Made by a program: the position numbers and the translations under genes. From Sedimentisphaera cyanobacteriorum (GTDB lineage: Bacteria; Planctomycetota; Phycisphaerae; Sedimentisphaerales; Sedimentisphaeraceae), in contig NZ_CP019633.1 in assembly GCF_001997385.1 (NCBI RefSeq), positions 420,001-452,000 of the forward strand: a DNA stretch of 32,000 nucleotides. Direction: 5' to 3'. This document shows positions 9,337 to 31,102 of the stretch, piece after piece. Position 1 is the first letter of the stretch; every line of letters begins with the position of its first letter. Below the pieces are notes generated by a model that ran no database searches, had not been told where the DNA came from, and saw nothing but the letters and a program-made list of their open reading frames with translations.

Positions 9337-9344
9337 GGCTTATT

Positions 9345-10466: not shown

Positions 10467-10508
10467 CTTTTATAGATTGAACAGTTAGTATTTTGAGATA
10501 AATAAATT

Positions 10509-15015: not shown

Positions 15016-15246
15016 TTTTTAATCCTGTCCTTAAGTTGAGCAATAATTTATTAATCACATAAACGTATATTAGAACAGAAATCAATAATTATTTAACTCA
15101 ATATTGTATAATAATACCGCAAATTTGGGCAAAAATTTAGATTGATGCAGTTAATTTCATCAGTATTTTAAATTTTGTGGTAAATTTTCACTGTTTGAAT
15201 ACATTATTAAATAGAAAAGGTCTTATTGTTTAACTGGGAGATAAAA

Positions 15247-16782
15247 ATGAAATATTCAAGAAGAAATTTTCTCAAAGCTGCTGGAGTTATGTCTGCAGGG
15301 CTTGCATTTGGAGAGAATGTTCTCGCTGATGAAAAAAAGAAGCCTAATGTTGTAATTATATACACAGACGACCTCGGCTACGGCGATGTAAGCTGCTACG
15401 GCGCAACAGAAATCGAAACACCTAATATCGACAGATTGGCCAAGGAAGGCCTGCGCTTTACAAACACGCACACCGCCTCTGCCACCTGCACCCCTTCAAG
15501 ATATGCCCTGCTGACAGGTGAGTATCCTTGGAGAAGGGAAGATACCGGTATTGCAGCAGGCGATGCGAATATGATTATAGAAGCCGGCAGACACACTTGG
15601 CCGGAATCAATGCGCAGAGCCGGCTACAAAACAGCTGTTGTAGGCAAATGGCACTTGGGGCTGGGCGATTCAAAGATAGACTGGAACAAAAAGATAGCAC
15701 CAGGGCCGCTTGAAATAGGCTTTGATTACAGCTTTATAATCCCCGCAACTGGTGACAGAGTTCCCTGCGTTTATGTGGAAAATCACGAAGTTGCAAACCT
15801 TGATGAAGACGACCCACTCTATGTGAGCTTCAAAAAGCCGTTCAAAGGCCTGCCTACGGGCAAAAAGAACCCCGAGCTTCTCAATATGAAGCACTCCCAC
15901 GGCCACAACAACGCAATTATAAACGGCGTAGGCAGGATTGGCTATATGAAGGGCGGGGCAAGCGCTGTATGGAACGACAGGACAATGGCCGCAAAGCTGG
16001 TTGACAAGGCCTGCGATTTTATGTACGAAAATAAAAACAATCCTTTCTTCCTCTATTTCTGCACCCATGATGTGCATGTTCCGCGCCTTCCAAACGAGGA
16101 GTTCCGAGGCAAGAGCGGGATGGGGCCGCGAGGCGATGCTATCCTCCAGCTCGACTGGACAGTAGGAATGCTTCTCGAGGAGCTTGAAGAGATGGGGCTC
16201 AAGGACGATACTGTCGTTATGTTCTCCAGCGATAACGGGCCTGTGCTCGATGACGGCTATCAGGATAAGGCAGTGGAAAAGCTCGGAGACCACGAACCTT
16301 GGGGGCCTTACCGCGGCGCAAAATACAGCAGATATCAGGCAGGGACGCTCGTTCCGTTTATACTGAGATGGCCGGGTGAGGTGCCTGCGGGCAAAACCTC
16401 TGATGCCCTCATATCCCAGACAGACCTTTTCGCTTCATTTGCAGCGATGAATAATCAGAAAATGCCGAAGACCGCTCCGGACAGCAAGAATGTTCTGCCT
16501 GCTCTTCTCGGCAAGACTGAAAATGCAAGGAAATATCTTGCAATTGATGCTATCGGAGGGCTGGCTGTCGTTGGCGGAAGATGGAAGTTTATGCCGGCAA
16601 ATGATGAGCCCAAAACCGCTTGGCAGACAGGCATAGATACCGGCGCAAGAAGAAAGCCCCAGCTCTATGATTTGAAAAACGATATGGCAGAGAAAAACAA
16701 CCTTGCTGATAAGATGCCCGGCGTGGTTGAAGACCTTTCTCAAAAGCTTGAAGAGATATTAAACGGCGCCGCTCCTGAATAG
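15247..16782 (+). CDS. S1-family sulfatase, exported, 511 aa
   Basis: The start is moved to the ATG at 15247 (GGGAG SD 6 nt upstream); the ORF track uses the TTG at 15226. It has an RR signal (YSRRNFLKAAGVMSAG), IYTDDLGYGDVSCYG, the FGly motif CTPSRYALLTG, GKWHLG, SSDNGP and LYDLKNDMAE. Confidence 0.9.
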   Translation: MKYSRRNFLKAAGVMSAGLAFGENVLADEKKKPNVVIIYTDDLGYGDVSCYGATEIETPNIDRLAKEGLRFTNTHTASATCTPSRYALLTGEYPWRREDTGIAAGDANMIIEAGRHTWPESMRRAGYKTAVVGKWHLGLGDSKIDWNKKIAPGPLEIGFDYSFIIPATGDRVPCVYVENHEVANLDEDDPLYVSFKKPFKGLPTGKKNPELLNMKHSHGHNNAIINGVGRIGYMKGGASAVWNDRTMAAKLVDKACDFMYENKNNPFFLYFCTHDVHVPRLPNEEFRGKSGMGPRGDAILQLDWTVGMLLEELEEMGLKDDTVVMFSSDNGPVLDDGYQDKAVEKLGDHEPWGPYRGAKYSRYQAGTLVPFILRWPGEVPAGKTSDALISQTDLFASFAAMNNQKMPKTAPDSKNVLPALLGKTENARKYLAIDAIGGLAVVGGRWKFMPANDEPKTAWQTGIDTGARRKPQLYDLKNDMAEKNNLADKMPGVVEDLSQKLEEILNGAAPE

Positions 16783-17033: not shown

Positions 17034-18611
17034 ATGAATCTATCGAGGCGTAATTTTCTTAAAAGAGCTTCAATCTTAGGTGCAGGTGCGTTTGCAGGTG
17101 CCTCTTTTGCGGGTTCTTCGAGCAGCCGGCCGAATATTATTTGGCTTATCTGCGAAGATATGTCTCCGGATTTGGCCTGTTACGGAAATTCGGTTGTAAA
17201 AACGCCAAATATAGACGCTCTCGCCCAGCAGGGCAGGCGATACGACAGGGTTTACTGCACAGCACCTGTCTGCTCGGCAAACCGCAGCGCTCTGTTCACC
17301 AGTATGTATCAGACCACGCTCGACGCCCAAGACCACCGCAGCCACCGAGATGACGGGTATATTTTGCCCTCTCCCGCCCGGGTAATTACGAATTATTTCA
17401 GAGATGAAGGATACTATACAAGCTGCGGGCGCTGGGACAATACCTCCAGCTGGGGCAAGGGCGACTGGAACTGGCAGAGCCCGACCCATCGCGACAGCTT
17501 CGACGGAACCGACTTTTCCGGCAGGGCTCAGGGGCAGCCGTTCTTTGCTCAAATAAGCTTTTCCCTTACCCACCGTTCAGCAGATTCCGTTCAGAACCCG
17601 CAGAATCCAATCTCTGGTTCTCAAATTGAGCTCCCTCCAACTAATCCTGAACATCCTCTTACGAGAAAGGACTGGTCGAATTATCTCGAGAAGGTGCAAA
17701 AGCTGGATTCTCAGGTTGGTTCGGTGCTTTCCCGCATTGAATCTGAGGGTCTTGCGGAAAACACGATAATTTTCTTCTTCTCAGACCACGGCCGTCCTCA
17801 GATCTGGGATAAGCAGTGGCTGTATGAAGGCGGGCTAAGAATTCCGCTGATTATTCGCTGGCCCGGAGAGATCCCCGAAGGCAGTGTTAGCGATGAGCTT
17901 ATCAGCACTATTGATTTAGCTCCAACTGCGATGAAATGGGCGGGGATTGATGTGCCCGGCCATTTCCACGGCATGCCATTTTCAAGAGAAGGCAGAAGAC
18001 TCGTTTATGACAGCGCCAGCTTTTCCCTCGGGCTCGCTTCCCAAACCGCCGGCAGAAACTATGCCTTCGCAGCGAGGGATAAATGCGGCGCAAGCTTCGA
18101 CCGCATAAGGGCGGTTATCACGAAACGATACAAATATATTCGCAATTTCTATCCCGAAAGGCCGTACACGAACAATCCGGGACAGACTATGTTCAACAGA
18201 TACATTGCAAATGAGTATCCCGTTAATGCGGTTCAGTTTGCAAAGTATTATCAAGGCTCGCTTGAGCCTGCCCAGCTCAAGTTTATGGAAACAGCAGGCG
18301 GGGCGAACCGCCCGGCAGAAGAACTCTACGACCTGCAAAACGACCCATGGGAGCTGAATAATTTAGCGGCTAACCCGCAGCATCAGCGAATAAGAGATCA
18401 CCTTTCCCGCAGACTGGACCGCTGGATTGTAGAAACTGGCGATATGGGCGAATACCCGCCGGACGATTTGAATGTCGGGTTAAACTGGGGAACAAACAAT
18501 TTCTACAGCACCCTTGAAGCAAGAGGTGTTGATACAGAACCATTCAAACAGGGCAGATATCAGCAGGGCTGGGAAAATTATCTTGCGTACTGGGAAAATG
18601 TTTTGCTCTAA
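17034..18611 (+). CDS. S1-family sulfatase, C-x-A-x-R variant, exported, 525 aa
   Basis: It has an RR signal (LSRRNFLKRASILGAGAFAG). The metal site reads WLICEDMSPDLACYG (E-D instead of D-D). The FGly motif is CSANRSALFT (Cys80, codon at 17271-17273). Later motifs are FSDHGRP and LYDLQNDPWE. Confidence 0.88.
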   Translation: MNLSRRNFLKRASILGAGAFAGASFAGSSSSRPNIIWLICEDMSPDLACYGNSVVKTPNIDALAQQGRRYDRVYCTAPVCSANRSALFTSMYQTTLDAQDHRSHRDDGYILPSPARVITNYFRDEGYYTSCGRWDNTSSWGKGDWNWQSPTHRDSFDGTDFSGRAQGQPFFAQISFSLTHRSADSVQNPQNPISGSQIELPPTNPEHPLTRKDWSNYLEKVQKLDSQVGSVLSRIESEGLAENTIIFFFSDHGRPQIWDKQWLYEGGLRIPLIIRWPGEIPEGSVSDELISTIDLAPTAMKWAGIDVPGHFHGMPFSREGRRLVYDSASFSLGLASQTAGRNYAFAARDKCGASFDRIRAVITKRYKYIRNFYPERPYTNNPGQTMFNRYIANEYPVNAVQFAKYYQGSLEPAQLKFMETAGGANRPAEELYDLQNDPWELNNLAANPQHQRIRDHLSRRLDRWIVETGDMGEYPPDDLNVGLNWGTNNFYSTLEARGVDTEPFKQGRYQQGWENYLAYWENVLL

Positions 18612-18618
18612 GGAGGTT

Positions 18619-20508
18619 ATGGTGAAATTATTTACACTTTCAGTTTTGCTTCTTGCCTCTTCTGTTTTAGGTGCACAGATCCCGCAAGGCCTCTCAGGGG
18701 CATGGAGATTTGAGGAGGCAGGTTCTGGCATAATAAAAGATTTTTCCGGAAATAATTCTGACGGTATCCTGCTGGGATCGCCCTCAGCCTGCGATGGGTA
18801 TATTTCAGCCGGCCTTGAGCTCGACGGCTTCGATGATTATATCAATGCTCCCTCGTTTACTATGAACACGCAGAACGCTGCATTTAGTGCGTGGATTAAC
18901 ACTCAATCAATCCCGAATTGGTGGGTTTCAGTTATCAACACTCACAAGGCCTCGGGCAAGTGCGGCCTTGCATTCTACAAAAACCAGAATCAGCTTGCAT
19001 ATTACTGGAACGACAGCAAATACAGCTTCGACAGCGGCCTTGAAATCCCGCTCAATCAGTGGGTTTTTATCGCTGTTGTAATTGAGCCTGAAAGGGCGGT
19101 GCTCTATGTGAAACCCTATGGCGGGCAGCTTGAGAAGAGCGTAAATTTCGACAATCATTCCTTCTGCAGTTTGAAAGGGGTAATGATAGGCAGGGATTCT
19201 GCACCGGGCTGGGGAGACGGCGAAAGGCGCTTCCAAGGGCGCATAGATGAGGTTAGGATCTATTCGAGGAGCCTCTCTGAGAGCGAGGTTATCCGGCTTT
19301 CTGATATGGAAAGATGCTGGAATTATCCGCCTCGAATATCTGTAAGCGATGCCCAGATTGCCTATGCCGGCAAGCCGCGAAGCTTCAGCTGTTCTTTTCA
19401 GGATGACGGCAGGCCTTTTATCGAAGGCTGCGATAATCTGATGCAGGGCACTTCTTTCCAGAAGACTTTCTATTGGAGTAAAGTTTCCGGTACGGGCAGT
19501 GTCAGTTTTACAGCCCCCTATAAACAGACATCTCAGGCAGTTTTCTCCGAGCCGGGGAATTATCAGATTAAGATAGATGTTTCAGACGGGCCTTCCGGAA
19601 TCCCTGAACAGATCCACGGGAAAACAGGTTCTGTTTTTATAGACGTGGAAGTGCTTAGCGAAGAAGATAAACAGCTCTTAGCGGATTACAGATTCCAGCA
19701 GCAGCCTGATGAAGATGCCCCGGATTCAGCAGGCGAAAATGATTTGGCTCAGAGGATGGTTTTCGGTCTGCCCGGTCAGAACTGGTGCGAAGGCCCAGAA
19801 AACAGCAAAGCAGCGGGTTTTATGCCCGGGGAAAATACTTTTTATGAAATCCAGCCCTCCGGCAACAGTCAGTCAGAGCTTGCAGATATCAAAGAGGCAG
19901 CTGTTTCTGCTTGGATTATGCCGCTTGCAGGCTCGCCGGAAGGGGGGAGAGTTTGTTTTTCCGCAAAAAACTCTTCAGGAAAGGTCTTCACCATTGAAGG
20001 TACAAGCACATTGAGCAATTCAAAGTGGCATCATATAGCTGCTGTGTACGATGCGGTTCAAGGGCAGATGCTCGTTTATGTTAACGGAGTTTTAGACGCA
20101 GCCAAAGATATTCCCCCTTCAGCCCTCAGCAGTGATTGGTATGAGCCTTTGATTGCCTCAGGGTACTCCGAGCAGAGAGAAAATTTTGCAGGATGTATTG
20201 ATAAGCTCCAGATTTTCAACTATGCCCTCTCAAGAAACGAGGTCGTTTCACTGATGGAGTGCAGTGAGCTTGTTTTTGCCGGCCTCAGCGCCGAGGCAGA
20301 CATCTCGGGCAGGTTAAATTCTCCCGACTGCCGGGTAGATCTGTTCGATTATGCATTGCTCGCAGACAGCTGGCTCAGCTTTTCTCCAGTTAATGCAGAC
20401 ATAACTGGGGATTCGGCTGTAAATATTTCCGATTTGGCGCTGCTGGCTGAGAGCTGGCTCTCCTGTAAAGACCCGCAAGACCCGAGATGCCTTCAATATT
20501 ACGAATAA
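18619..20508 (+). CDS. Secreted LamG / Ig(PKD)-like / LamG / dockerin-like multidomain protein, 629 aa
   Basis: The start is moved to the ATG at 18619, where an AAGGAGG SD at 18610-18616 overlaps the upstream stop codon. The signal peptide is MVKLFTLSVLLLASSVLGA. Two LamG-type modules end in FQGRIDEVRIYSRSLSESEV and FAGCIDKLQIFNYALSRNEV. The central module YWSKVSGTGSVSF...FSEPGNYQIKIDVSDG is PKD/Ig-like. The C-terminus has two dockerin-like repeats, including DITGDSAVNISDLALLAESWL. Confidence 0.8.
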   Translation: MVKLFTLSVLLLASSVLGAQIPQGLSGAWRFEEAGSGIIKDFSGNNSDGILLGSPSACDGYISAGLELDGFDDYINAPSFTMNTQNAAFSAWINTQSIPNWWVSVINTHKASGKCGLAFYKNQNQLAYYWNDSKYSFDSGLEIPLNQWVFIAVVIEPERAVLYVKPYGGQLEKSVNFDNHSFCSLKGVMIGRDSAPGWGDGERRFQGRIDEVRIYSRSLSESEVIRLSDMERCWNYPPRISVSDAQIAYAGKPRSFSCSFQDDGRPFIEGCDNLMQGTSFQKTFYWSKVSGTGSVSFTAPYKQTSQAVFSEPGNYQIKIDVSDGPSGIPEQIHGKTGSVFIDVEVLSEEDKQLLADYRFQQQPDEDAPDSAGENDLAQRMVFGLPGQNWCEGPENSKAAGFMPGENTFYEIQPSGNSQSELADIKEAAVSAWIMPLAGSPEGGRVCFSAKNSSGKVFTIEGTSTLSNSKWHHIAAVYDAVQGQMLVYVNGVLDAAKDIPPSALSSDWYEPLIASGYSEQRENFAGCIDKLQIFNYALSRNEVVSLMECSELVFAGLSAEADISGRLNSPDCRVDLFDYALLADSWLSFSPVNADITGDSAVNISDLALLAESWLSCKDPQDPRCLQYYE

Positions 20509-20685: not shown

Positions 20686-22683
20686 TCATTTATCAAAAAA
20701 CACCGGCACTGCCCACTTGCCGAATTCCAGCTTTTCACCATCTTTACAATTCTTTTGATAGAGCGTGCAATGATTGGAATCTCTTTCCGTAAAGAATTTG
20801 AATTCCGGGATATCCACCTTTTCAAAGCCTTGCATCTCAAGCCTGCGGGATTGGCTGTCTTTATTTCTATGCGGCCGTGGGGTTAAGAAATGCACCATTC
20901 CGCCTTTCTTGCAGACAATAGTTTTTGTGCCGTCCATATCAGTCCGAACGAAATTTGCCCTTTTCAAAACATAGGGTAAATTGCGAACTTTGTAATCACG
21001 ATCGGCAAATAAAACCGCTCCAATTTCAAGGCTGAGTTGCGGGGTTTGTTTAATTTGGGCGGCAGGTTTTCTCATCAGCGGTTCGCCTTCTTTATTGTCT
21101 GAGCCGGCGCTGCCGAATTTCTCTTCTATCAACTTGTTTCGTTCCTGCTTTTCTTGCAAAATTTCGGAGAGCGTTTTGCGTTTGCCTTCAGCACCCTTTC
21201 GAGAGCTGCCGGAGGTGAAATGGGTTTCAAGCAGAGCTCTCATTCGCCACAATATCTCGGGAAATTTGGCGGCAAGATTGTTCTTTTCTTGGGGGTCGTC
21301 TTCGAGGTTGTATAATTCCATCTTATCCTTGTCCGGGTAGTAAACAAGCTTCCATTTACCTTCACGCAAACCTAAGGAGTTAAGCGCTCTGTCGCCCCCT
21401 ATTATATATGGCCTGATTTCGTTTTTGCTGCTTTTAGCAGTTAAAGCCGGCAAAATATTGAAGCTGTCAAGGGCCTGGTCGGGTTTCAGTGTATATCCTG
21501 TTAAAGCTGCAAAAGTTGCTGCCATATCCGAAAGCATTATCGGCTCGCTGCTTACCTCTGCTCTCGGTATTGCCCCGGGCATTCGAGCGATAAAAGGAAC
21601 GCGCAAACCGCCTTCATAAGCGGTGGCTTTATGGCCGCGCCATGGTGCAGCAGGACGATAATCTTCTTTGCAGCTGCTGTGAGCATTAGAATTCCGATAT
21701 CCCCCGTTGTCGCTGGTAACAATCAGCAGTGTGTTTTCCGCCAATCCAAGCCTGTCCAGAGTTTGCATTATTCTGCCTATTGTCCAGTCGAACTGCATAA
21801 CGAAATCTCCGTGTTTTCCGATCCCGCTTTTGCCTTCAAAACGCTTGTCAGGGGCTATAGGGAAATGTATTGAGCAGGTTGGAAAATAAAGAAAGAAAGG
21901 ATTCTCAGAATTTTGTTCTATAAATTCTTCAGCTTTCTGAACGAGCCTCGCTCCTATTTCATCATCTTTCCTGCGATTTTCCCACTTGCCCTTGGGAATA
22001 TGCCTTACAAGCTTATAGCCGTATCTGTCGAGAATTTTTATTTTGCTTTCAAACGGAGGCTTTGTCCCGCCTTGAATCTCACCGTCTTCTATATAATACT
22101 TTGGCTTCATATTGTGTCCATCGGGAACAATATAAGATTTATCGAACCCTATATCGTTAGGCCCAAAACCGGGATTATTTATATCTCTGGGCAGCTGTTT
22201 TCCTAAGCCTAAATGCCATTTGCCTACAACGCCTGTTTTGTATCCCTGCTGTTTAAACATTTTGGCAATGTTATACTCGTCTTTCCCGATAATCATCGGC
22301 TCGCCGTTAAACATTACATGGCTTGTATGATACTTTCTGAACGGACAGGTGCCGGTCAACACGGAATATCTGGTGGGAGTGCAAACAGCAGCGTTGCTGT
22401 AGGCATCTGTCAGTTGTATTCCCTGCTTTGCAAGCTTGGTTGTATTAGGTGTGGGGAAATACTCCTGCCCGTAGGCAGCTAAGTCTGAATAGCCTATATC
22501 ATCAGCCATAATGAATATAACATTAGGTTTTGATTTTGTTTTTTCCTGTCCCGCAAAAACTCTGCTTTGCATAAAGTTTGCCGCAAGCGAGGAACCGGCT
22601 GCGAAAGAAGCAGCAGTTCTCAAAAAATTTCTGCGAGAAACATTCTGATATTTGCTGTTTTTATAAAGCTTATTTTCATTCAT
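20686..22683 (-). CDS. S1-family sulfatase with about 175-aa C-terminal extension, exported, 665 aa
   Basis: It has an RR signal (VSRRNFLRTAASFAAG), IMADDIGYSD, the FGly motif CTPTRYSVLTG, GKWHLG, TSDNGG and LYNLEDDPQE (around aa 458-465). A K/E-rich linker and an uncharacterised domain of about 120 aa follow. Confidence 0.9.
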   Translation of the reverse strand: MNENKLYKNSKYQNVSRRNFLRTAASFAAGSSLAANFMQSRVFAGQEKTKSKPNVIFIMADDIGYSDLAAYGQEYFPTPNTTKLAKQGIQLTDAYSNAAVCTPTRYSVLTGTCPFRKYHTSHVMFNGEPMIIGKDEYNIAKMFKQQGYKTGVVGKWHLGLGKQLPRDINNPGFGPNDIGFDKSYIVPDGHNMKPKYYIEDGEIQGGTKPPFESKIKILDRYGYKLVRHIPKGKWENRRKDDEIGARLVQKAEEFIEQNSENPFFLYFPTCSIHFPIAPDKRFEGKSGIGKHGDFVMQFDWTIGRIMQTLDRLGLAENTLLIVTSDNGGYRNSNAHSSCKEDYRPAAPWRGHKATAYEGGLRVPFIARMPGAIPRAEVSSEPIMLSDMAATFAALTGYTLKPDQALDSFNILPALTAKSSKNEIRPYIIGGDRALNSLGLREGKWKLVYYPDKDKMELYNLEDDPQEKNNLAAKFPEILWRMRALLETHFTSGSSRKGAEGKRKTLSEILQEKQERNKLIEEKFGSAGSDNKEGEPLMRKPAAQIKQTPQLSLEIGAVLFADRDYKVRNLPYVLKRANFVRTDMDGTKTIVCKKGGMVHFLTPRPHRNKDSQSRRLEMQGFEKVDIPEFKFFTERDSNHCTLYQKNCKDGEKLEFGKWAVPVFFDK

Positions 22684-22738: not shown

Positions 22739-24019
22739 TTAAAAGAAATCTCTTAAACCCAATACGGCGATATACGACATTACCAAAGAGAAAACGAACG
22801 CTGCCGCCATCCCGCAGTTCAGAAGCACGCCGGCGCGGTATTTGCCCATTTGTTTGCTGTTGACAAGTAGTATTATGCAGCCTACTACCAGAGGCAGATT
22901 GAAAACTTGCGATACCTGAGTTGCGATTTGAGCGAGTATCGGGTTTGCCCCGAGTATCGGGACGGTCAAACCTATAAGAGCAGCCGCAGCGGTCAGCGAG
23001 CGAAACATAACCGAGCGTGTAACCATCTTGCCCTTGTTATAGTCTGAAATCAAAAGCGGGGCAACCATCATAATAGGCAAAGTAGAAGAGAGCCCTGCGC
23101 TGAGCGTGCCCACGAGGAACAGCGCTACTGCAAACCTGCCTGCAAACGGGGTGAGGCTGTTTGCCATATCCAATACGTTAGTAATTACCTTGCCCTCAGC
23201 GAACAATGCCCCGGCTGCGCACACCATAACAGACCCGCTGATAACAAACATCATCGCCGCCGAGGTAAAAGAATCCCTCTGCTGCTGACGAAGACCGTCA
23301 TTTGCCTCAATCCAGCCCTTGCTCTTTACCAGAAGCGGGCGAACCACAAACGTAGGTGCTGCCATAGTTGTGCCTACGAAAGCCGCTATCATCAGGTTGG
23401 CACCTTCGACATCGGGTATTGACGGAATAAAGCCCTTGGCAATATTAGCTGGAGAAGGCAGCACAATAAACATCGAGACAATAAAGCTCAACCCCAGAAT
23501 CGTAACGAAAAACACCAGCACTTTCTCAAAAAGAGAATACGTCCCGAACCAAAGTATCGCATACATCCCCGCCATTATCAAAACAGCTATTATCAGAGTA
23601 GGCGCATAGCCGGAAGGGCTTAATGAGGGGAAGAAAATTCTCAGCGTTTCGTAAACAGCTGAAGAAGACAGACCCACAAGCCCCGAAAGACAGCACCATT
23701 GACCAACGCTTACCCCCACAAGCACCAGAATCGCGATAAATTTGCCGCCTTTGAGCTTCGTCTTGAAGCTGTGTATCGCGGTTTCCCCGGTAATCACCGC
23801 GTATCTGCCGTAAGCCTCCATCAACACCCATGCGAAAAGGCAGCTAAACGCAAGAACCCAGAGAAGCTGAGTTCCAAACTCAGAACCCGCTTTGCTCATC
23901 GAAGTAACGCTGCCTGTGCCGATAGTATAACCGATACAAAATATCCCCGGACCTACAGAAAGCAGAAGCAGCCAAAGTTTTTTAAGCGGGGATTGGGATT
24001 TTGTGTTTTCGTTTTCCAT
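22739..24019 (-). CDS. NRAMP-fold (LeuT-fold) membrane transporter, divergent, metal-site motifs absent, 426 aa
   Basis: The TM1 region SVGPGIFCIGYTIGTGSVTSMSKAGSEFGTQLLWV parallels NRAMP GP(A/G)..A.AY.DPGN....AG..FGY.LLWV. However, DPGN is replaced by IGTG(S). The TM6-equivalent reads GTTMAAPTF and has no MPH. About 11 hydrophobic segments are present. Confidence 0.75.
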   Translation of the reverse strand: MENENTKSQSPLKKLWLLLLSVGPGIFCIGYTIGTGSVTSMSKAGSEFGTQLLWVLAFSCLFAWVLMEAYGRYAVITGETAIHSFKTKLKGGKFIAILVLVGVSVGQWCCLSGLVGLSSSAVYETLRIFFPSLSPSGYAPTLIIAVLIMAGMYAILWFGTYSLFEKVLVFFVTILGLSFIVSMFIVLPSPANIAKGFIPSIPDVEGANLMIAAFVGTTMAAPTFVVRPLLVKSKGWIEANDGLRQQQRDSFTSAAMMFVISGSVMVCAAGALFAEGKVITNVLDMANSLTPFAGRFAVALFLVGTLSAGLSSTLPIMMVAPLLISDYNKGKMVTRSVMFRSLTAAAALIGLTVPILGANPILAQIATQVSQVFNLPLVVGCIILLVNSKQMGKYRAGVLLNCGMAAAFVFSLVMSYIAVLGLRDFF

Positions 24020-24043: not shown

Positions 24044-25132
24044 TTATCTTACTACCCTGCCCGAGGCGCTTCCGCCGGCAAGAGCCTCTACTTCGTTCCT
24101 GCTGCTGAAGTTGAAATCGCCTTTGATTGAATGGGCAAGGCAGGATGTAGCTGCTGCAAATGAAACTGCCTTTTGGCATTCTGCTAATTCAGAGGTGTTT
24201 AAGGCAAAGATCAAACCTGCGGCGAATGCGTCTCCGCCGCCTACCCTGTCAACGATATCCGTTATCTTATACGGCTGATATTCGCCGCCGTCTGTCGGGG
24301 CGTAATAGGCTTTGGCCTGCTCGCAGTCGTAAAGCATTGCCCCCCAGTTGTTGTGCGAAGCGGATACGCTCTGCCGAAATGTGGTGGCTATCTTATCAAC
24401 GTTTGGAAACGCCTTGTGTATTTTAATTGCGACGTCTTTGTAGGCATTTACATCGAGCCTGCCCGCCTGAACGTCAGTGTTTTCAGCCTCTATGCCCAGC
24501 ACACAGGCGGCGTCTTCCTCGTTGGCGATTAAGACATCAACGTAGGGGACAATCTCGCTCATTACCTCTCGGGCAAGGCTCTTCGGCTCTTTCCCCGGCT
24601 CCCATTTCCAAAGCTTCCCCCTGAAGTTCAAATCGCAGGATATTGTTACTGATGCCTGTTTTGCATTTTTAACAGCGGCAAGCGTGCTCTGGGCTGCCTC
24701 TTTTGAAAGCGCCGGCGTTATTCCGGATATGTGCAGCCAGCCGGCATCGGCGAAGATACCGTTCCAATCGTAAGCATCGGGCTTTGCTTTGCTTATTGCT
24801 GAATGAGAGCGGTCGTATATTATGCGGCTCGGACGCTGATTGGCTCCGGTTTCGGTAAAATACAGCCCTAACCTGCCGTCGTTATGTATTATATGCGATG
24901 TGCCTACACCTAAAGACCTCAGCTCGGCGATACAGGCGGCGGCTATGTCGTTTTTCGGCAATGCTGTAACAAAAGCCGCCTTTCCCCCAAGCTGGGATAT
25001 TGATACTGCAACATTCGCTTCCGCGCCGGCAAAAAGCATATTTACCTTACCCGGCAGACACTGACGAAACCTCATAAAGCCTTCCGGCATAATCCTTGCC
25101 ATAATTTCGCCAAAAGTTATCACCTTTTTCAT
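24044..25132 (-). CDS. kdgK: 2-dehydro-3-deoxygluconokinase (PfkB family)
   Basis: MKKVITFGEIMARIMPEGFMRFRQ...FAGAEANVAVSISQLG is the long-form KdgK N-terminus. The C-terminal anion hole reads VDRVGGGDAFAAGLIF. It is adjacent to eda. Confidence 0.85.
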   Translation of the reverse strand: MKKVITFGEIMARIMPEGFMRFRQCLPGKVNMLFAGAEANVAVSISQLGGKAAFVTALPKNDIAAACIAELRSLGVGTSHIIHNDGRLGLYFTETGANQRPSRIIYDRSHSAISKAKPDAYDWNGIFADAGWLHISGITPALSKEAAQSTLAAVKNAKQASVTISCDLNFRGKLWKWEPGKEPKSLAREVMSEIVPYVDVLIANEEDAACVLGIEAENTDVQAGRLDVNAYKDVAIKIHKAFPNVDKIATTFRQSVSASHNNWGAMLYDCEQAKAYYAPTDGGEYQPYKITDIVDRVGGGDAFAAGLIFALNTSELAECQKAVSFAAATSCLAHSIKGDFNFSSRNEVEALAGGSASGRVVR

Positions 25133-25166: not shown

Positions 25167-25811
25167 TCAATTCTCAAGCCTGTTTTTCGCATCTTTGCAC
25201 AAATCGCTAATCAATTTCCATTCGCCTTTTGAGATTGCCTCTCTTGGGGCAAGCCAAGACCCTCCTGCGGCAAAAACATAGTCCTGCTTTAGGTAGTCTG
25301 TAAAATTGTCTGCATTTATCCCTCCCAACGGGAAGAAGCTTATCCCCGTATGGCGATACGGAGCGGACATCGATTTGAGATATTTAATACCGCCAAGGGG
25401 CTCAGCGGGGAAGAATTTAAGATGTTTGCAGTTATAGCTCAAGGCCTGTTCAACATCTGAAGGTGTGCAAACGCCCGGTGCAAACGGCAAACCTGCCTTC
25501 ATTGCTTCTTCCACAACTTCAGGATTAAGCCCGGGTGAAACTGCAAATTCAGCCCCTGCATCAGCGGCCTGCCGTACTTGTTCTCTTGTTAAGACGGTGC
25601 CTGCCCCAACGAGCATTTGCGGGTATTTGTTTTTTATAACCTTGATTGCCTCAATCGCTTCATCAGTTCGCAGAGTTAATTCAATGCTGTTCATGCCCGC
25701 TTCCAACAAGGTTTCGGCAAGTCCGGCAGCATTATCTTTATCGTCTATAACTACCGTAGCGACTACCCGCTCGCTTTCCAACTCTTTAAATACATTTTCC
25801 GGTGTCTGCAT
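25167..25811 (-). CDS. eda: 2-dehydro-3-deoxyphosphogluconate (KDPG) aldolase
   Basis: The sequence shows IELTLRT, VGAGTVL, SPG, GVCTPSD, LKFFPAE (Schiff-base Lys context) and GGSWL. The 214 aa length fits. Confidence 0.9.
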   Translation of the reverse strand: MQTPENVFKELESERVVATVVIDDKDNAAGLAETLLEAGMNSIELTLRTDEAIEAIKVIKNKYPQMLVGAGTVLTREQVRQAADAGAEFAVSPGLNPEVVEEAMKAGLPFAPGVCTPSDVEQALSYNCKHLKFFPAEPLGGIKYLKSMSAPYRHTGISFFPLGGINADNFTDYLKQDYVFAAGGSWLAPREAISKGEWKLISDLCKDAKNRLEN

Positions 25812-26008
25812 AAGCTTCTTTTGAGATTTAATATTAGATTAAAAATATTAGAACACAGATAAGAGATTAAACTTAACAAAATATATAGTGATAATGATAA
25901 CACGTATGGCTGCTGAGTTTCTTCTCATTAGTTATACTTTGGTGTTTACCTCTTTCTTATTCAAAACTGAAACATCGCTGAAATTTTAACATATATCCGA
26001 CCATGACA

Positions 26009-26044
26009 AACACCATTATGCGAATAAAAAACACCCTATTGCGA
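26009..26044 (+). promoter_or_regulatory. Direct-repeat candidate operator (2 x 15 bp, 21-bp period) for the XylR/AraC-type regulator
   Basis: AACACCATTATGCGA (26009-26023) and AACACCCTATTGCGA (26030-26044) share 12 of 15 positions, two helical turns apart. The second repeat ends 10 bp upstream of a -35-like box. A third AACACC occurs inverted at 25941-25947. Confidence 0.4.
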
Positions 26045-26054
26045 CAAAAGACTC

Positions 26055-26083
26055 TTGCTAAGAAAGTGTTAAGCAAGTATAAT
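26055..26083 (+). promoter_or_regulatory. Sigma70-like promoter for the regulator gene (TTGCTA-17-TATAAT)
   Basis: TTGCTA lies at 26055-26060 and TATAAT at 26078-26083, 38 nt upstream of the ATG at 26122. Confidence 0.35.
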
Positions 26084-26121
26084 ATAAATTCGTTAATAAA
26101 ATTAGACTCTTCCGGGCATTT

Positions 26122-27261
26122 ATGCAGCATACAAAAAGAATAGCTTTACTAATCGAGACCTCCACCTCTTACGGCAGAGCGCTGATACGCGGGATACTTA
26201 CGTATGCCAATATAGCGACAAATTGGGTGTTTTATAACGAGCCAAGCGGTTTTGCTGATTCATTGCCTGAGCTGTCTGCAAAAAGCTTTGACGGTATAAT
26301 TATGAGGGATACCTCGGAAAATATGAAGCTTCTGAAATTGGGTGTCCCGGCTATAGTATCAATTCGCTATCAGGATAAGATAGCAGGTGTGCCGAATATA
26401 GTAAGCAATTCCTCGCAGATTGGAGCTATGGCAGCGTCTTATTTCAGAAATAAGGGCTTCGAAAATTTCGCTTACTGCGGGTTTGAAAATATGCCTTGGT
26501 CTCACGAGAGAAAAAAGGCTTTCGCTGCCAGCCTGCCTTCAGGATGCCGGTTTGAATCTTTTTCCCAGCAAAGCAGCGGCAGCTACGAAAAACAGATTCA
26601 GAGCCTATCAGACTGGTTAGCTTCGCTCGAAAAGCCATCTGCGCTTATGGCTTGCAACGATGTCAGAGGCGCAACTATAATAGAGGCCTGTAAATTAGCA
26701 GGCTTGAAGATTCCGCAAGAAATATCGATCTTGGGCGTGAACAACGATGATATGATATGCGAGATGGTTTCGCCGCAGCTCTCAAGCATATCGCTTAATA
26801 TCGTAAAAGCAGGCTCTAAGGCTGCTCAATGTTTGGATAATCTTATTAAAGGAAAAACTGGCAGCGAACAGAGAATCAACGTGGAGGCGGATGGTATTGT
26901 TTCCCGTGCATCGACCGACTTGCTGGCAATAAACGACCCTGCTATTGCCCAAGCTTTGCACTTTATAACCCAAAACAGAAGGCAGCATCTGCAGGTCAGC
27001 GAGGTTGCCGAATATGTCGGTGTCAACAGACGCAGTCTTGAGCGAAGGTTCAAAGCAGTATTGAACACAAGCGTTTATGAACAAATCAAAAGCGTTAGAA
27101 TTAACACTATTTGCAAAATGCTGACTCAAACGAGCATCCCCATATCCGAAATATCTTATTCGATGGGTTTTAACGACGCCAACCACATCGCAAGATACTT
27201 CAAACAAAAAACCGGTATTACACCCTTGCAGTATAGAAAGCAGTATTCAGCAATGCACTGA
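26122..27261 (+). CDS. XylR-type transcriptional regulator (periplasmic-binding-protein-like sugar sensor domain plus AraC-family HTH)
   Basis: The architecture and many local matches follow E. coli XylR: KRIALLIETSTSYGRALIRGI, ACNDVRGATIIEACKLAGLKIPQEISILGVNNDD and RASTDLLAINDPAIAQALHFI. The C-terminal AraC HTH reads FNDANHIARYFKQKTGITPLQYR. Confidence 0.85.
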   Translation: MQHTKRIALLIETSTSYGRALIRGILTYANIATNWVFYNEPSGFADSLPELSAKSFDGIIMRDTSENMKLLKLGVPAIVSIRYQDKIAGVPNIVSNSSQIGAMAASYFRNKGFENFAYCGFENMPWSHERKKAFAASLPSGCRFESFSQQSSGSYEKQIQSLSDWLASLEKPSALMACNDVRGATIIEACKLAGLKIPQEISILGVNNDDMICEMVSPQLSSISLNIVKAGSKAAQCLDNLIKGKTGSEQRINVEADGIVSRASTDLLAINDPAIAQALHFITQNRRQHLQVSEVAEYVGVNRRSLERRFKAVLNTSVYEQIKSVRINTICKMLTQTSIPISEISYSMGFNDANHIARYFKQKTGITPLQYRKQYSAMH

Positions 27262-27609: not shown

Positions 27610-29988
27610 GTGAACATGACGGGTATGAAAAAATTTATGCTGCCTGCAATTGCGGCTCTTCCTTCTATCGCGCTGGCGGCAGAGGGCTCAAACGGCGGTG
27701 AAGCGGATGTGTCAACAGGCTGGGCAGAGCCTATCTTTTGTGTTATCGCCTCGCTTGTTGCTCTTGGATTTGCCAGATTCTTCTACAAGAAGATGATGGA
27801 GGCCTCCGAGGGAACAGACAAGATGAAGGAAATTGCCGAAGACGTTCGCAAAGGTGCTTATGCATATCTCAGAAGGCAGTATGGGGTTGTAACGGTGGTA
27901 TTCATCGTTCTGCTGTTAATATTTGTCGGCCTTGCGATGGCTGGTGCTCAGAATCCGTTTGTTCCGCTTGCTTTCTTAACAGGCGGTTTCTTCAGTGGTT
28001 TATGCGGATATCTCGGCATGAAAACTGCTACCTTCGCCTCTGCCAGAACTGCTAGCGGAGCAAAAGAAGGGCTAAATAAAGGGCTCACAGTTGCTTTCAG
28101 AAGCGGTGCTGTTATGGGGCTTGTTGTAGTGGGCTTCGGCCTATTGGATATCTCTCTTTGGTATCTGCTTCTGGATAAGCTGGTTTATACCGCAGAGCAT
28201 ATGAGAGAAGGATGGGGCTTCCTCGTCCCGGCAGGTATGAACCCCGACCACAAGCTCATCGTGATCACCACAACGATGATTACATTCGGTATGGGTGCTT
28301 CAACACAGGCTCTGTTTGCACGTGTTGGCGGCGGTATTTACACAAAAGCAGCTGACGTTGGTGCAGACCTTGTTGGAAAGGTTGAAGCGGGTATCCCTGA
28401 AGACGACCCGAGAAACCCTGCTACTATCGCAGATAATGTTGGCGATAACGTTGGCGACGTTGCCGGAATGGGTGCAGACCTGTACGAAAGCTATTGCGGG
28501 TCTATCCTCGCTACTGCCGCTCTTGGTGCTGCCCTTGGAATCAACCTGCCTCACGGCCTCGACCCTTTCAAAGTGGTTGTAGCTCCGATGCTGGTTGCCG
28601 GAATTGGCATCATACTATCTGTAATCGGGATGTTTATGGTTAAGTGTAAGGAAGGGGCTAGCCAGAAAAACCTCCTCCGTTCACTTCTAACCGGCACGCT
28701 TGCAAGCTCTGTGATGATTGTTATTGCTCTGATGATCCTCGTTTTCACAGGCTACATCACTTGGGGAATCTTCGCTGCTGTAATAACAGGGCTGATTGTC
28801 GGCGTGATCATCGGCCAAATCACAGAATACTACACCTCTGATGAATTTGCACCTACTAAAAGCATTGCCGAACAAACCCAGATGGGACCTGCTACAACAA
28901 TTATTGAAGGTATTTCAGCCGGTATGTATTCCACCGGATTCACGGTTGCAACAATCGTAATAGGTATTCTGCTTGCTTACGGTTTCAGCGGCGGATTCAA
29001 CAATCCCGCTATGGGGCTCTACGGAATCGGCTTTTCTGCTGTGGGCATGCTTTCAACTCTCGGAATAACTCTTGCGTCTGACGCATACGGACCAATCGCA
29101 GATAATGCAGGCGGTAATGCTGAGATGGCAGGGCTCGGCGAAGAAGTTCGAAACAGAACAGATGCCCTTGATGCCCTTGGAAATACTACAGCTGCCACAG
29201 GTAAAGGCTTTGCTATCGGCTCAGCCGCTCTTACAGCTATGGCTCTTCTCGCTGCATATCTCGAAGAGGTGCGTGTGTGGATAGCCAAGCTCGCCAATGA
29301 ATCGGCAGAAGGTATATACAGAGTGGGCGAGATGGTGTTTACCGCCGAATCTGTAAAAACCGCTCCAGTGGCGAAATTTGTTGAGGCATACAACCTCACC
29401 ATTATGAATCCGAAAATGATATGCGGCCTCTTTATCGGCTCAATGATGGCGTTTGTATTCAGCGCTATGACAATGAAGGCTGTTGGAAGGGCTGCTGGCG
29501 ATATGGTGAACGAAGTGAGAAGGCAGTTTAAGGAGATGCCAGGAATTCTTGACGGATCTCAGAAGCCTGATTACGCAACTTGCGTTGCCATTTCAACAAA
29601 AGGCGCTCAGAAGGAAATGATCCTTCCCTCAGCGATTGCTATTATCGTGCCTGTGCTTACGGGCCTGATTCTCGGCGTTGCTGGTGTGCTCGGTCTGCTC
29701 GCAGGCGGCCTTGTTGCTGGATTTTCACTCGCTATCACACTAAACAACGCAGGCGGGGCTTGGGATAACGCCAAAAAATACATTGAAAAAGGACACTTCG
29801 GCGGCAAGAATTCCGAATCGCACCACGCAGGCGTTGTGGGCGATACCGTTGGCGACCCGTTCAAGGATACATCAGGACCATCTCTAAACATTCTCATCAA
29901 GCTTATGACAATGGTTTCTGTTGTTTTCAGCGGCGTTGTTATCAAATTCGGCCCGCAGATTTCCGATTTACTGAATTTGAACTACTAG
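27610..29988 (+). CDS. hppA: Membrane-bound ion-translocating pyrophosphatase, K+-dependent type
   Basis: The sequence shows GGGIYTKAADVGADLVGKVE, IADNVGDNVGDVAGMGADLYES, DAYGPIADNAGG, GNTTAATGKGFAIGSAAL and GDTVGDPFKDTSGPS. The GTG at 27610 or the ATG at 27616 follows a GGAG SD. Confidence 0.93.
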   Translation: MNMTGMKKFMLPAIAALPSIALAAEGSNGGEADVSTGWAEPIFCVIASLVALGFARFFYKKMMEASEGTDKMKEIAEDVRKGAYAYLRRQYGVVTVVFIVLLLIFVGLAMAGAQNPFVPLAFLTGGFFSGLCGYLGMKTATFASARTASGAKEGLNKGLTVAFRSGAVMGLVVVGFGLLDISLWYLLLDKLVYTAEHMREGWGFLVPAGMNPDHKLIVITTTMITFGMGASTQALFARVGGGIYTKAADVGADLVGKVEAGIPEDDPRNPATIADNVGDNVGDVAGMGADLYESYCGSILATAALGAALGINLPHGLDPFKVVVAPMLVAGIGIILSVIGMFMVKCKEGASQKNLLRSLLTGTLASSVMIVIALMILVFTGYITWGIFAAVITGLIVGVIIGQITEYYTSDEFAPTKSIAEQTQMGPATTIIEGISAGMYSTGFTVATIVIGILLAYGFSGGFNNPAMGLYGIGFSAVGMLSTLGITLASDAYGPIADNAGGNAEMAGLGEEVRNRTDALDALGNTTAATGKGFAIGSAALTAMALLAAYLEEVRVWIAKLANESAEGIYRVGEMVFTAESVKTAPVAKFVEAYNLTIMNPKMICGLFIGSMMAFVFSAMTMKAVGRAAGDMVNEVRRQFKEMPGILDGSQKPDYATCVAISTKGAQKEMILPSAIAIIVPVLTGLILGVAGVLGLLAGGLVAGFSLAITLNNAGGAWDNAKKYIEKGHFGGKNSESHHAGVVGDTVGDPFKDTSGPSLNILIKLMTMVSVVFSGVVIKFGPQISDLLNLNY

Positions 29989-30050: not shown

Positions 30051-30475
30051 AATTTATTGCTTGACTTCAAGCCTGAAAAATTATATGTTAATGTTAGGTA
30101 ATTAGATAGGTTTATCTGCCTCTTACTGAGATTGTTTGAGCTGAGGTTTAAAGCAGTGCTTTTTCAAAGCTCATAAATTTCAAAAGCGCAGAACCTTAAG
30201 TTTTGTCTGTGATAAGACAATTCGACCGTTGTTTGAGTTTGGCTTCTGAGAATCGTTTGCATAACACGATCTGATTGGGCTTGGAACAGAATCGTAAGAT
30301 CTTTTAAGCCTTTGACATCATTTATAAGTGAAAACATTTGTTTATTTGCTCCTTAGTTCCGCTTCAGCTTTCCAGGCTTAAAACGCATTAGGTTTTATAA
30401 ATATGTTTGCTGTCTTATTCTTTAACAGAAAGGCAGCGAGAAAAGTTAGTGCAAACATATTTTAGGAGTGATTGT

Positions 30476-31102
30476 ATGTTTAAGCCTGTAACTATTGCTG
30501 TAATGCTGCTGTATGCTTTTGGACACATTCCTTCAGCGGCGGAAACGCGGGATTTCAGCGACGATATTTCCGAAAGCTTTCAAATTCTTCCTGAAAGCGA
30601 GCCCATAGAGGGAGAGCTGCAAACTGAAACGGATATTGATTTCTTTGTCTTAAATCCTGTGCCCCAGACGGTTTATCGTGTCTTTCTCAATAACGGGGCA
30701 TCAGACAGGAAAAATATGACAGTCTTAATGGAAAATTACAACTCGGAGCTAAGAGATATAAAAACACTCGACTCAATTGCTGAAACTGAATATTCCACTT
30801 TCTATTGCGAATACGGCTATCCCGTATATTTCAAGGTTTTCAGCAACTACAGCGCATCGGGATTGTATCATATTGAAGTGCAGACAGTGAAATCAGCTGA
30901 TGTTGATTCGTTTTCCAACAGCTGCTCAGCCCCAACCCTATTGGATCTTTCAGGCGGCTATATCGAAACAGAAGCGGTTATAGACACTTCCGAACCTAAC
31001 TTCCCTGCAGCAGACTATTACACCTTTGATGCCCTTGAAAATTACCGTTACCATATCAGCTTCGATTATCTGGACTCTTCCGAAATAGAAGCCTCTATTT
31101 AG
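30476..31102 (+). CDS. Small secreted protein with PPC-like (pre-peptidase C-terminal-type) repeats; probably 3'-truncated
   Basis: The start is moved to the ATG at 30476 (AGGAG SD). The signal peptide is MFKPVTIAVMLLYAFGHIPSAAE. One complete module runs IEGELQTETDIDFFVLNP...YRVFL...GLYHIEVQTV. A second begins IETEAVID...ADYYTFDALENYRYHISF and stops about 15 aa later, immediately before the IS. Confidence 0.6.
   Translation: MFKPVTIAVMLLYAFGHIPSAAETRDFSDDISESFQILPESEPIEGELQTETDIDFFVLNPVPQTVYRVFLNNGASDRKNMTVLMENYNSELRDIKTLDSIAETEYSTFYCEYGYPVYFKVFSNYSASGLYHIEVQTVKSADVDSFSNSCSAPTLLDLSGGYIETEAVIDTSEPNFPAADYYTFDALENYRYHISFDYLDSSEIEASI

Follow-up and report, generated by a model that had tools for sequence, protein, structure and literature searches.

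Pfam family PF01566 (Nramp) has been described as comprising Slc11, the NRMT proteins and an 'orphan outgroup' of Slc11 (PMC9606685). NrmT genes are marked by an M-box riboswitch and/or an MgtE-N partner gene (PMC4072509), and NRMT and NRAT together show that specificity within the family can change. PF01566 proteins that lack the aspartate of the first transmembrane helix (TM1) are already known as the orphan outgroup, so the absence of the DPGN and MPH motifs is not new in itself. An organic carboxylate as the substrate of such a protein is likewise an existing, contested idea, and within the family it is the closest functional parallel to transport of something other than a metal: Corynebacterium glutamicum needs pxpT to grow on 5-oxoproline, growth being restored by complementation in trans, and Bacillus subtilis needs ycsG to use 5-oxoproline (PMC13274462). 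Here we analyze a PF01566 gene of Sedimentisphaera cyanobacteriorum that lies on the minus strand of a 32,000-nucleotide stretch (contig NZ_CP019633.1, positions 420,001 to 452,000; hereafter the window, numbered from its first letter) and whose product belongs to a deep clade that we call the GTGS clade. With slightly better than even confidence, we read this protein as an NRAMP/LeuT-fold secondary-active importer of a carbohydrate-derived organic solute, most likely an acidic sugar, and here probably 2-keto-3-deoxygluconate (KDG) or its galactonate epimer.

Fold, metal-site motifs and place within PF01566

The carrier gene is an intact open reading frame (ORF) with an ATG start that encodes 426 amino acids. 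Nramp is the only Pfam family matched by the product, and the match is full-length (187.3 bits against a gathering threshold of 29.8, with residues 38-396 covering profile positions 1-355 of 357). A model predicted with AlphaFold2 from 52 homologues has a mean predicted local distance difference test score (pLDDT) of 85.6 and a predicted template-modelling score of 0.84. When this model was searched with Foldseek, the best match in the PDB was EleNRMT (7qia; template-modelling scores 0.81/0.86), and the entries 7qia, 6c3i, 10ky, 8e6i and 9f6q all aligned with scores of 0.75-0.86 and a probability of 1.00. The top structural matches are all NRAMP-family proteins (EleNRMT, Deinococcus radiodurans MntH (DraNramp), Bacteroides fragilis MntH, human NRAMP1, DMT1 and NRAT); the other LeuT-fold matches, ApcT (about 0.68), AdiC (about 0.6-0.64) and NKCC1, follow well behind. 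Because the full-length Pfam match, the confident model and the exclusively NRAMP top matches agree, we consider the predicted NRAMP fold to be secure. The curated MntH model of NCBIfam, NF001923, is missed by the carrier (71.2 bits against a cutoff of 430). The features to which we refer are as follows.

22739..24019, minus strand: carrier ORF, a GTGS-clade secondary carrier and predicted sugar-acid (KDG-type) importer (from the ORF, Pfam, AlphaFold2, Foldseek and the clade split)
23909..23920, minus strand: codons of G34-T35-G36-S37 in TM1, opposite D34-P35-G36-N37 of MntH (from the alignments)
23354..23374, minus strand: codons of G216-T217-T218-M219-A220-A221-P222 in TM6, opposite G-A-T-x-M-P-H of Slc11 (from the alignments)
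23339..23341, minus strand: codon of R227 in TM6b, a clade-specific invariant arginine opposite H216 of Escherichia coli MntH (from the MAFFT alignment)

To place the motifs we used HMMER alignments to EleNRMT (7qia) and B. fragilis MntH, a BLASTP alignment to E. coli MntH and a MAFFT alignment of 59 sequences, all of which agree. Every metal-ligand side chain of Slc11 is replaced in the carrier, with A206, M209, P210 and H211 of MntH aligned to T217, A220, A221 and P222. In this Slc11 motif the alanine acts through its carbonyl and the methionine through its sulfur, and the histidine belongs to the proton pathway. A preliminary description of the locus, made from the sequence alone, had proposed that IGTG(S) at nucleotides 23909-23926 stands in place of DPGN; the right codons were covered, but the register was off by one residue. 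Its proposal that TM6 carries GTTMAAPTF instead of A-x-x-M-P-H is borne out by the alignments to MntH and NRMT.

A search of 1.84 billion cluster representatives at 50% identity returned two kinds of relatives. Group 1, the GTGS clade proper (29-55% identity to the carrier), has 'GY[TN]IGTGS' in TM1 and 'VGTT...' followed by an arginine in TM6, whereas group 2 (21-27% identity) has 'FIGPGTVTT' and 'IGTTVVPYNLFLH[AS]'. The states of group 2 (D to G, N to T, A to T, M to V and H to Y) match the substitutions that Cellier described for the orphan outgroup of Slc11 (PMC10606218, PMC9606685). The carrier is 45% identical on average to group 1, 26% to group 2 and about 21% to MntH and NRMT. In a neighbor-joining tree (gamma-type distance, with E. 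coli MntH, B. fragilis MntH and EleNRMT included; 100 bootstraps), group 1 was separated from group 2, MntH and NRMT in 100/100 replicates. A grouping of the carrier clade with NRMT appeared in 1/100, and NRMT was placed with group 2 and MntH. The main split of this tree is trusted, its finer and deeper branching order is not. The phylogeny with MntH and NRMT that had been suggested as a check thus sets the carrier clade apart from both. As judged from these sequences, the GTGS clade is a further, deeper branch of PF01566, sister to the orphan outgroup, NRMT and Slc11 taken together. The earlier view of an NRAMP-fold protein that has lost its metal-binding residues therefore stands as to the fold and the absence of every ligand side chain; 'lost' and 'NRAMP-derived' are not established, because a clade that is sister to all of these groups may never have had the metal site.

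The replaced motifs are strongly conserved. The carrier has more than 4,500 homologous proteins at E<=1e-5, and a relative is encoded on at least 477 metagenome stretches; the best homologues come from a Planctomycetota metagenome-assembled genome (90% identity) and Limihaloglobus sulfuriphilus (83%). GTGS is present in 120/120 of the closest homologues, all at least 61% identical to the carrier, and VGTTMAAP in about 109/120. Within the 52-homologue alignment (60-85% identity), G34, T35, G36, S37, G216-P222 and R227 are invariant, and across the clade as a whole G34 and G36 are conserved at 100%, T35 at 90% and S37 at 86%. Since over 100 homologues show little or no variation in the replaced motifs, their replacement is, on this comparison, a selected state and neither chance nor decay. 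A pseudogene or decayed MntH was considered and rejected, given the intact ORF, the invariant motifs and the large size of the family.

Inspection of the group alignments shows that G30, Y31, T35, S37, R227, S311, P315, P321 and D326 are invariant specifically in group 1, that G34, T217 and T218 are common to groups 1 and 2, and that a TM10 glutamine (Q368) is common to all groups. Arginine occupies the R227 position in 100% of the clade, where both MntH sequences and 74% of group 2 have histidine, making this residue a candidate partner of an anionic group or a candidate gate residue. Among the clade-wide invariant positions of the MAFFT alignment there is no conserved intramembrane carboxylate in place of the TM1 aspartate.

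Gene context in the window and in other genomes

The carrier gene is the third of four minus-strand genes that run head to tail, eda, kdgK, carrier and sulfatase, with gaps of 34, 24 and 55 nucleotides. The operon and its surroundings comprise the following features.

25167..25811, minus strand: KDPG/KHG aldolase (Eda), first gene of the operon (Pfam PF01081, 205 bits; TIGR01182 eda, 231 bits against a cutoff of 156)
24044..25132, minus strand: 2-keto-3-deoxygluconate kinase (kdgK, PfkB family; Pfam PfkB, 114 bits; best PDB match 2afb, Thermotoga maritima KDG kinase, 280 bits)
20686..22683, minus strand: exported formylglycine-type sulfatase, 55 nucleotides downstream of the carrier (Pfam Sulfatase, 171 bits; RRNFL twin-arginine-like signal in the translation)
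25812..26121, no strand: divergent intergenic region, presumably holding the promoter/operator for operon and regulator (from its position; without a riboswitch)
26122..27261, plus strand: divergent XylR-type regulator with a Peripla_BP_3 sugar-binding domain and an AraC helix-turn-helix (Pfam)
4346-5968 (minus), 10509-11921 (plus), 15226-16782 (plus), 17034-18611 (plus) and 20686-22683 (minus): five formylglycine-type sulfatases in 32 kb

The top NCBIfam matches of the kinase are models for KDG and KDGal kinases, all under their curated cutoffs. The single minus-strand operon of the preliminary description, with spacings of 24 and 55 nucleotides, holds exactly: the kdgK stop at 24044 and the carrier ATG at 24019 are 24 nucleotides apart, the carrier stop at 22739 and the sulfatase ATG at 22683 are 55 nucleotides apart, and there is no terminator-like site on the minus strand between eda and the sulfatase. 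The arrangement suggests that the carrier is probably co-transcribed with the KDG kinase and KDPG aldolase. A search of the window with Rfam gathering thresholds gave 0 matches, and so neither an M-box nor a Mn riboswitch; promoter-like matches in the divergent intergenic region do not exceed shuffle expectation. The 32-kb window has no uxa, uxu or kdu genes and, in the operon or elsewhere, no dehydrogenase, lactonase, dehydratase or isomerase that would turn a neutral sugar into KDG. The pxpABC families LamB_YcsF, CT_C_D and CT_A_B are found neither in the window nor among the top neighbor families described below.

To examine context more widely, we assembled twelve look-ups of contigs encoding homologues and 80 metagenome loci. 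The carrier was missed by the ORF caller at 9 of 92 loci, which were excluded from the context statistics. In all nine orthologues with at least 67% identity and a readable upstream region (L001, L002, L003, L005, L013, L014, L016, L017 and L021), eda and/or kdgK lies directly upstream. One of the nine is the 83%-identical orthologue of the cultured L. sulfuriphilus, which sits in the same eda-kdgK operon, and the XylR-type regulator recurs upstream of eda-kdgK-carrier in L003, L005, L016 and L017. Members with 59-66% identity occupy other modules: 2-hydroxyacid dehydrogenase, BNR_2, carrier, HpcH aldolase and BNR_2; an enolase-superfamily (galactonate/mannonate-type) dehydratase, carrier and HpcH aldolase; sulfatase, BNR_2, carrier and alpha-L-fucosidase; or carrier followed by ADH, SDR and GFO_IDH. 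Across 115 non-redundant same-strand neighbors pooled in a Pfam scan, the most frequent families are BNR_2 (12), HpcH (9), MR_MLE (7), PfkB (7), KDPG aldolase (6), sulfatase (6), fucosidase (5), SDR (4), GFO_IDH (4) and FAH (3), and no metal-homeostasis family is among the top 25.

The association depends sharply on distance. Members of eda, kdgK, HpcH or MR_MLE account for 27/127 genes at ±1 position, 10/101 at ±2, 1/77 at ±3, 1/153 at ±4-6 and 0/41 beyond, and 27/70 non-redundant loci have one of them within two genes. Sulfatases are most frequent at ±2/3, and their association is weaker than the one seen for the cytoplasmic sugar-acid enzymes at ±1. Co-occurrence with kdgK and/or eda, which the earlier proposal had named as a check, is seen in every close orthologue with a readable upstream region, together with a distance-dependent enrichment of markers. 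The association with sugar-acid genes in general extends across the clade, through several sugar-acid modules; synteny with kdgK and eda as such is confined to the orthologous sub-clade of the window.

Sub-clades of the carrier tree track distinct gene contexts. On the 41-kb contig Ga0209269_1000412, two paralogous GTGS-clade carriers (75% identity; L035 and L077) lie 18 kb apart, each with an HpcH aldolase gene after it and BNR_2 genes on its flanks, in what looks like a large island for ulosonic- or sugar-acid utilization. Distant group-1 members are also found in carbohydrate loci, one from the Acidobacteriota near PMI/ManC, aminotransferase, GFO_IDH, Amidohydro_2 and PGM genes, and one from the Bacteroidales near a chondroitinase-B-like lyase, a sulfatase and an RGL11-like gene. 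Because sub-clades track contexts, paralogues share one contig, the enrichment falls off sharply with distance and distant members lie in carbohydrate loci, the pattern, as read from gene order, is that of substrate-specialized nutrient carriers and not of metal homeostasis genes.

Several further features of the window and the sampled loci were recorded. The C-terminal ~180 residues of the operon's sulfatase (20686-21243, minus strand) are 41-45% identical to the C-termini of the proteins encoded after the carrier in two other loci (L001:9304-10854 and L002:9225-10796; 516 and 523 residues), which are closer to the BNR_2-type protein of L003 than to this sulfatase. The shared C-terminus looks like a common domain, of no known function, attached to catalytic domains that have been exchanged. 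At the nucleotide level the window resembles L001 (80%) over kdgK and the carrier only. Elsewhere in the window are four further sulfatases, a sodium:solute symporter (SSF) with a URO-D-like gene, an H+-pyrophosphatase and housekeeping genes. Two of the five sulfatases match the Pfam TAT_signal model below its cutoff. The sulfatase ORF at 17034-18611 (plus strand) overlaps by 98 nucleotides a two-domain Laminin_G_3 protein at 18514-20508 (plus strand), whose TTG start is probably too far upstream, the real one likely being internal.

The SSF symporter is paired with the URO-D-like (uroporphyrinogen-decarboxylase/methyltransferase-family) gene at 12173-13705 and 13741-15015 on the minus strand. 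URO-D-like genes adjoin GTGS-clade carriers in two other loci, in one of which an SSF gene directly follows the carrier (L009:9306-10370; L011:522-1694 and 9307-10881), and the pairing may be a recurring module in glycan loci. The membrane H+-pyrophosphatase (27610-29988, plus strand; 868 bits) adjoins the operon regulator, and another such gene (L095:12669-14882) is found at a distance of 3.4 kb from the family member of the Bacteroidales; the occurrence in two unrelated lineages is probably a coincidence. Near the end of the window are a DDE_Tnp_1 transposase (31148-31906, minus strand) and an adjoining 231-residue ORF (30407-31102) with no Pfam match.

Substrate, mechanism and rival explanations

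That the carrier moves an organic and probably sugar-acid substrate, not a metal, is well supported by comparative genomics: eda and kdgK lie upstream, sugar-acid enzymes recur among the clade's neighbors, their frequency falls off sharply with distance, a metal riboswitch is absent from the window and the adjoining regulator is of a sugar-binding type. The preliminary description had likewise favored an organic substrate over Mn/Fe, and the clade's context of sugar-acid and glycan catabolism agrees with it on this point; its suggestions of a uronate or a sulfated sugar acid gain no specific support, in a window without uxa, uxu or kdu genes. KDG specifically is plausible, and would be the most economical substrate for this operon.

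Together, the carrier, kinase and aldolase are predicted to suffice for taking KDG from outside the cell to pyruvate and glyceraldehyde-3-phosphate. After import, the neighboring KDG kinase would add a phosphate to KDG, or to its galactonate epimer, and the KDPG aldolase encoded beside it would split the product into these two compounds. Expression would presumably be controlled by the divergent, sugar-sensing XylR/AraC-type regulator and coupled to the exported sulfatase, which would act on polymer outside the cell. Within the protein, the carboxylate and hydroxyls of a KDG-type substrate may lie between G34-T35-G36-S37 of an unwound TM1 and G216-T217-T218 of TM6, held by backbone amides and hydroxyls, with Y31 as a possible stacking residue and R227 as a possible charge partner or gate. 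Transport would follow a rocking-bundle cycle driven by H+ or Na+, and other sugar acids would be handled by the paralogues that these genomes encode.

Several observations weigh against a sugar-acid importer. Because divalent cations are used by HpcH aldolases, enolase-superfamily dehydratases and PfkB kinases alike, their proximity to the carrier could in principle reflect metal supply. About 45% of the non-redundant loci have no marker family within two genes, many of them short contigs or loci with unannotated neighbors. DSSP assigns continuous helices to TM1 and TM6 of the carrier model, at a local pLDDT of 64-70, and the geometry of the unwound segments is hence assumed from homologues. 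The fucosidase-linked paralogues suggest a neutral sugar substrate in some sub-clades. The carrier also passes NCBIfam model NF037982, 'Nramp family divalent metal transporter' (Nramp_1; 72.7 against a cutoff of 50), and a second study of YcsG assigned to it the import of Mn2+ and renamed it MntG (PMC10448178). These last two points would sit well with a carrier that still transports a cation (Mg2+, Mn2+, Ca2+ or a monovalent ion) through backbone, hydroxyl or water-mediated coordination, as NRMT does with hydrated Mg2+, and so supplies a cofactor to sugar-acid enzymes or sulfatases. The best match in both sequence and structure is a Mg2+ transporter, EleNRMT; T217 and A220 of TM6 are NRMT states; and Q368, the equivalent of a metal contact in MntH, is kept. 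Yet the TM1 aspartate that Slc11 and NRMT both keep is glycine in 100% of the clade, with no other conserved intramembrane carboxylate, and neither an M-box or Mn riboswitch in the window nor an MgtE-N gene or metalloregulator among the top neighbor families points to metal. Several paralogues per genome, each with a catabolic context of its own, are unlike metal homeostasis genes, and exported sulfatases would not be served by cytoplasmic metal import. We regard a cation transporter as improbable.

A neutral sugar or other non-acidic glycan product (L-fucose, L-rhamnose, 3,6-anhydrogalactose or an amino sugar), imported and then converted in the cytoplasm to a 2-keto-3-deoxy acid, would still make the carrier a transporter of organic solutes, of a kind other than carboxylates. 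Alpha-L-fucosidases are recurrent direct neighbors (5/115) and define a whole sulfatase-BNR_2-carrier-fucosidase sub-clade; SDR, GFO_IDH, ADH and FAH genes, typical of non-phosphorylative fucose and rhamnose pathways, occur beside members; and the Acidobacteriota member lies amid mannose and amino-sugar genes. These observations make a neutral sugar plausible for some paralogues. It fits the window operon poorly, because nothing there, where the only enzymes are a kinase and an aldolase acting on KDG, would convert such a sugar to KDG. In addition, the order dehydratase-carrier-aldolase copies that of E. coli rhmD-rhmT-rhmA, with its aldonate permease, and the invariant R227 and a G-T-G-S segment resembling a carboxylate-binding GSG motif would suit an acid. 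On balance we consider this alternative unlikely, if not strikingly so. An exporter or exchanger, acting on a toxic intermediate, on sulfate from desulfation or on a sugar acid against a product, is the least probable of the readings and in our view quite remote. LeuT-fold families include exchangers, the direction of transport is not readable from sequence, and sulfatases are frequent within two to three genes; their proximity is nevertheless weaker than that of the sugar-acid enzymes at ±1, their export signals imply that sulfate is freed outside the cytoplasm, and their great abundance in these genomes (five in the window alone) makes adjacency weak evidence.

Import of an acidic sugar, if correct, bears on how such proteins are named. 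All named database homologues carry metal-transporter names ('Mramp', 'manganese transport protein'), because the looser NF037982 model, typed as an equivalog, passes on a protein without the aspartate; the naming is likely a systematic misannotation. Thousands of proteins called 'Nramp family divalent metal transporter' or 'manganese transport protein' would then probably be misnamed, distorting reconstructions of metal homeostasis and carbon flux in marine and sediment glycan degraders. The carriers would also fill a gap, as the cytoplasmic-membrane importers in sulfated-polysaccharide use by Planctomycetota (Sedimentisphaerales) and Kiritimatiellota are largely unassigned. They would further offer a natural experiment in how a single LeuT-fold site comes to hold either a bare metal ion or an organic anion, and would bear on the debate over the cargo of Asp-less PF01566 proteins (YcsG/PxpT), organic acids or Mn2+. 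The cultured L. sulfuriphilus, with its 83%-identical orthologue, makes the sugar-acid reading testable.

In the searchable literature, outside which most subscription-journal papers lie, we found no publication on the deeper GTGS clade and none linking NRAMP-family proteins to KDG, sugar-acid or glycan catabolism. More tentatively, and with somewhat less than even confidence, we propose that the clade is an unrecognized fourth NRAMP branch that would provide the main sugar-acid importers (for KDG, aldonates and possibly ulosonic acids) of glycan-degrading Planctomycetota and Kiritimatiellota, whose polysaccharide loci are without SusC/D-type systems. The carboxylate would occupy the site at which the unwound TM1 and TM6 of MntH bind Mn2+, and, taken with PxpT/YcsG, metal transport would be a derived trait in a family of ancestrally organic-acid carriers.

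Comparison with known systems

In the kdgRKAT operon of B. subtilis and in rhmRDTA and dgoRKADT of E. coli, a sugar-acid permease is grouped with the same enzymes as those found beside the carrier. KdgT (B. subtilis kdgRKAT, and Dickeya) shares with it an operon that combines a regulator, KDG kinase, KDPG aldolase and one permease, and the MR_MLE-carrier-HpcH loci are arranged like rhmD-rhmT-rhmA, which encodes RhmT. KdgT, and the major facilitator superfamily aldonate permeases RhmT and DgoT, nonetheless have no sequence or fold relationship to the carrier, which by analogy may be a non-orthologous replacement of a KdgT-type permease.

A second likeness is to APC/SLC7 carriers (AdiC, LAT1 and Asc1), which have a small-residue G-(S/T)-G segment in TM1. 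In SLC7, backbone N-H groups and the serine hydroxyl of this GSG motif bind the alpha-carboxylate of the substrate (PMC10998858). These carriers belong to another family, with 11-17% identity in structural alignments, and the resemblance of G-T-G-S to GSG is offered as a lead, not as an equivalence.

Slc11 proteins, which are Mn2+/Fe2+:H+ symporters (DraNramp, ScaDMT, E. coli MntH, human NRAMP1 and DMT1), share the Pfam family and fold of the carrier, together with GPG at the start of TM1, AG-x-x-G-x-x-LLW in TM1b/TM2, GLSS in TM8 and the TM10 glutamine. They differ from it, at about 21% identity, in that D-P-G-N is replaced by G-T-G-S, A-x-x-M-P-H by T-x-x-A-A-P and the second TM6b histidine by arginine, and in that the carrier's context is one of sugar-acid catabolism and not of metal regulation. 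EleNRMT is the best PDB sequence match (E 3.6e-16) and has the same 11-TM NRAMP fold, with threonine for the Slc11 alanine and alanine for the Slc11 methionine in TM6 (AFVGTTMAAP in the carrier, AMIGTTIAPW in EleNRMT). NRMT, however, keeps the TM1 aspartate (D-A-G-G; D55 of EleNRMT) where the carrier has Gly34, is about 21% identical to it and falls on the opposite side of the 100/100 split; the M-box riboswitch and adjacent MgtE N-domain gene described for NrmT (PMC4072509) were also not found with the carrier.

The orphan outgroup has glycine for the TM1 aspartate and Thr-Thr in TM6, as the carrier does. From gene context, this type includes PxpT/YcsG proteins. A group-2 member from Winogradskyella (P0239; GPGT / VPYNLFLH) is directly followed by LamB_YcsF, CT_C_D and CT_A_B, the genes of the pxpABC 5-oxoprolinase (L099:5001-8544), and one from Shouchella clausii lies near LamB_YcsF and two GntR regulators (L098:5001-9948); a group-2 query of the PDB sequence set did not return YcsG. 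In place of G-T-G-S and T-T-M-A-A-P...R the outgroup has G-P-G-T and T-T-V-V-P-Y-N-L-F-L-H, at 24-26% identity to the carrier. It is closer to MntH (133 bits to BfrMntH, against 50 bits for the carrier), on the opposite side of the 100/100 split, and its context is pxpABC, whereas that of the GTGS clade is sugar-acid and glycan genes. Beside the outgroup, the GTGS clade would thus be a second, independent case of an organic substrate in PF01566, for another substrate class.

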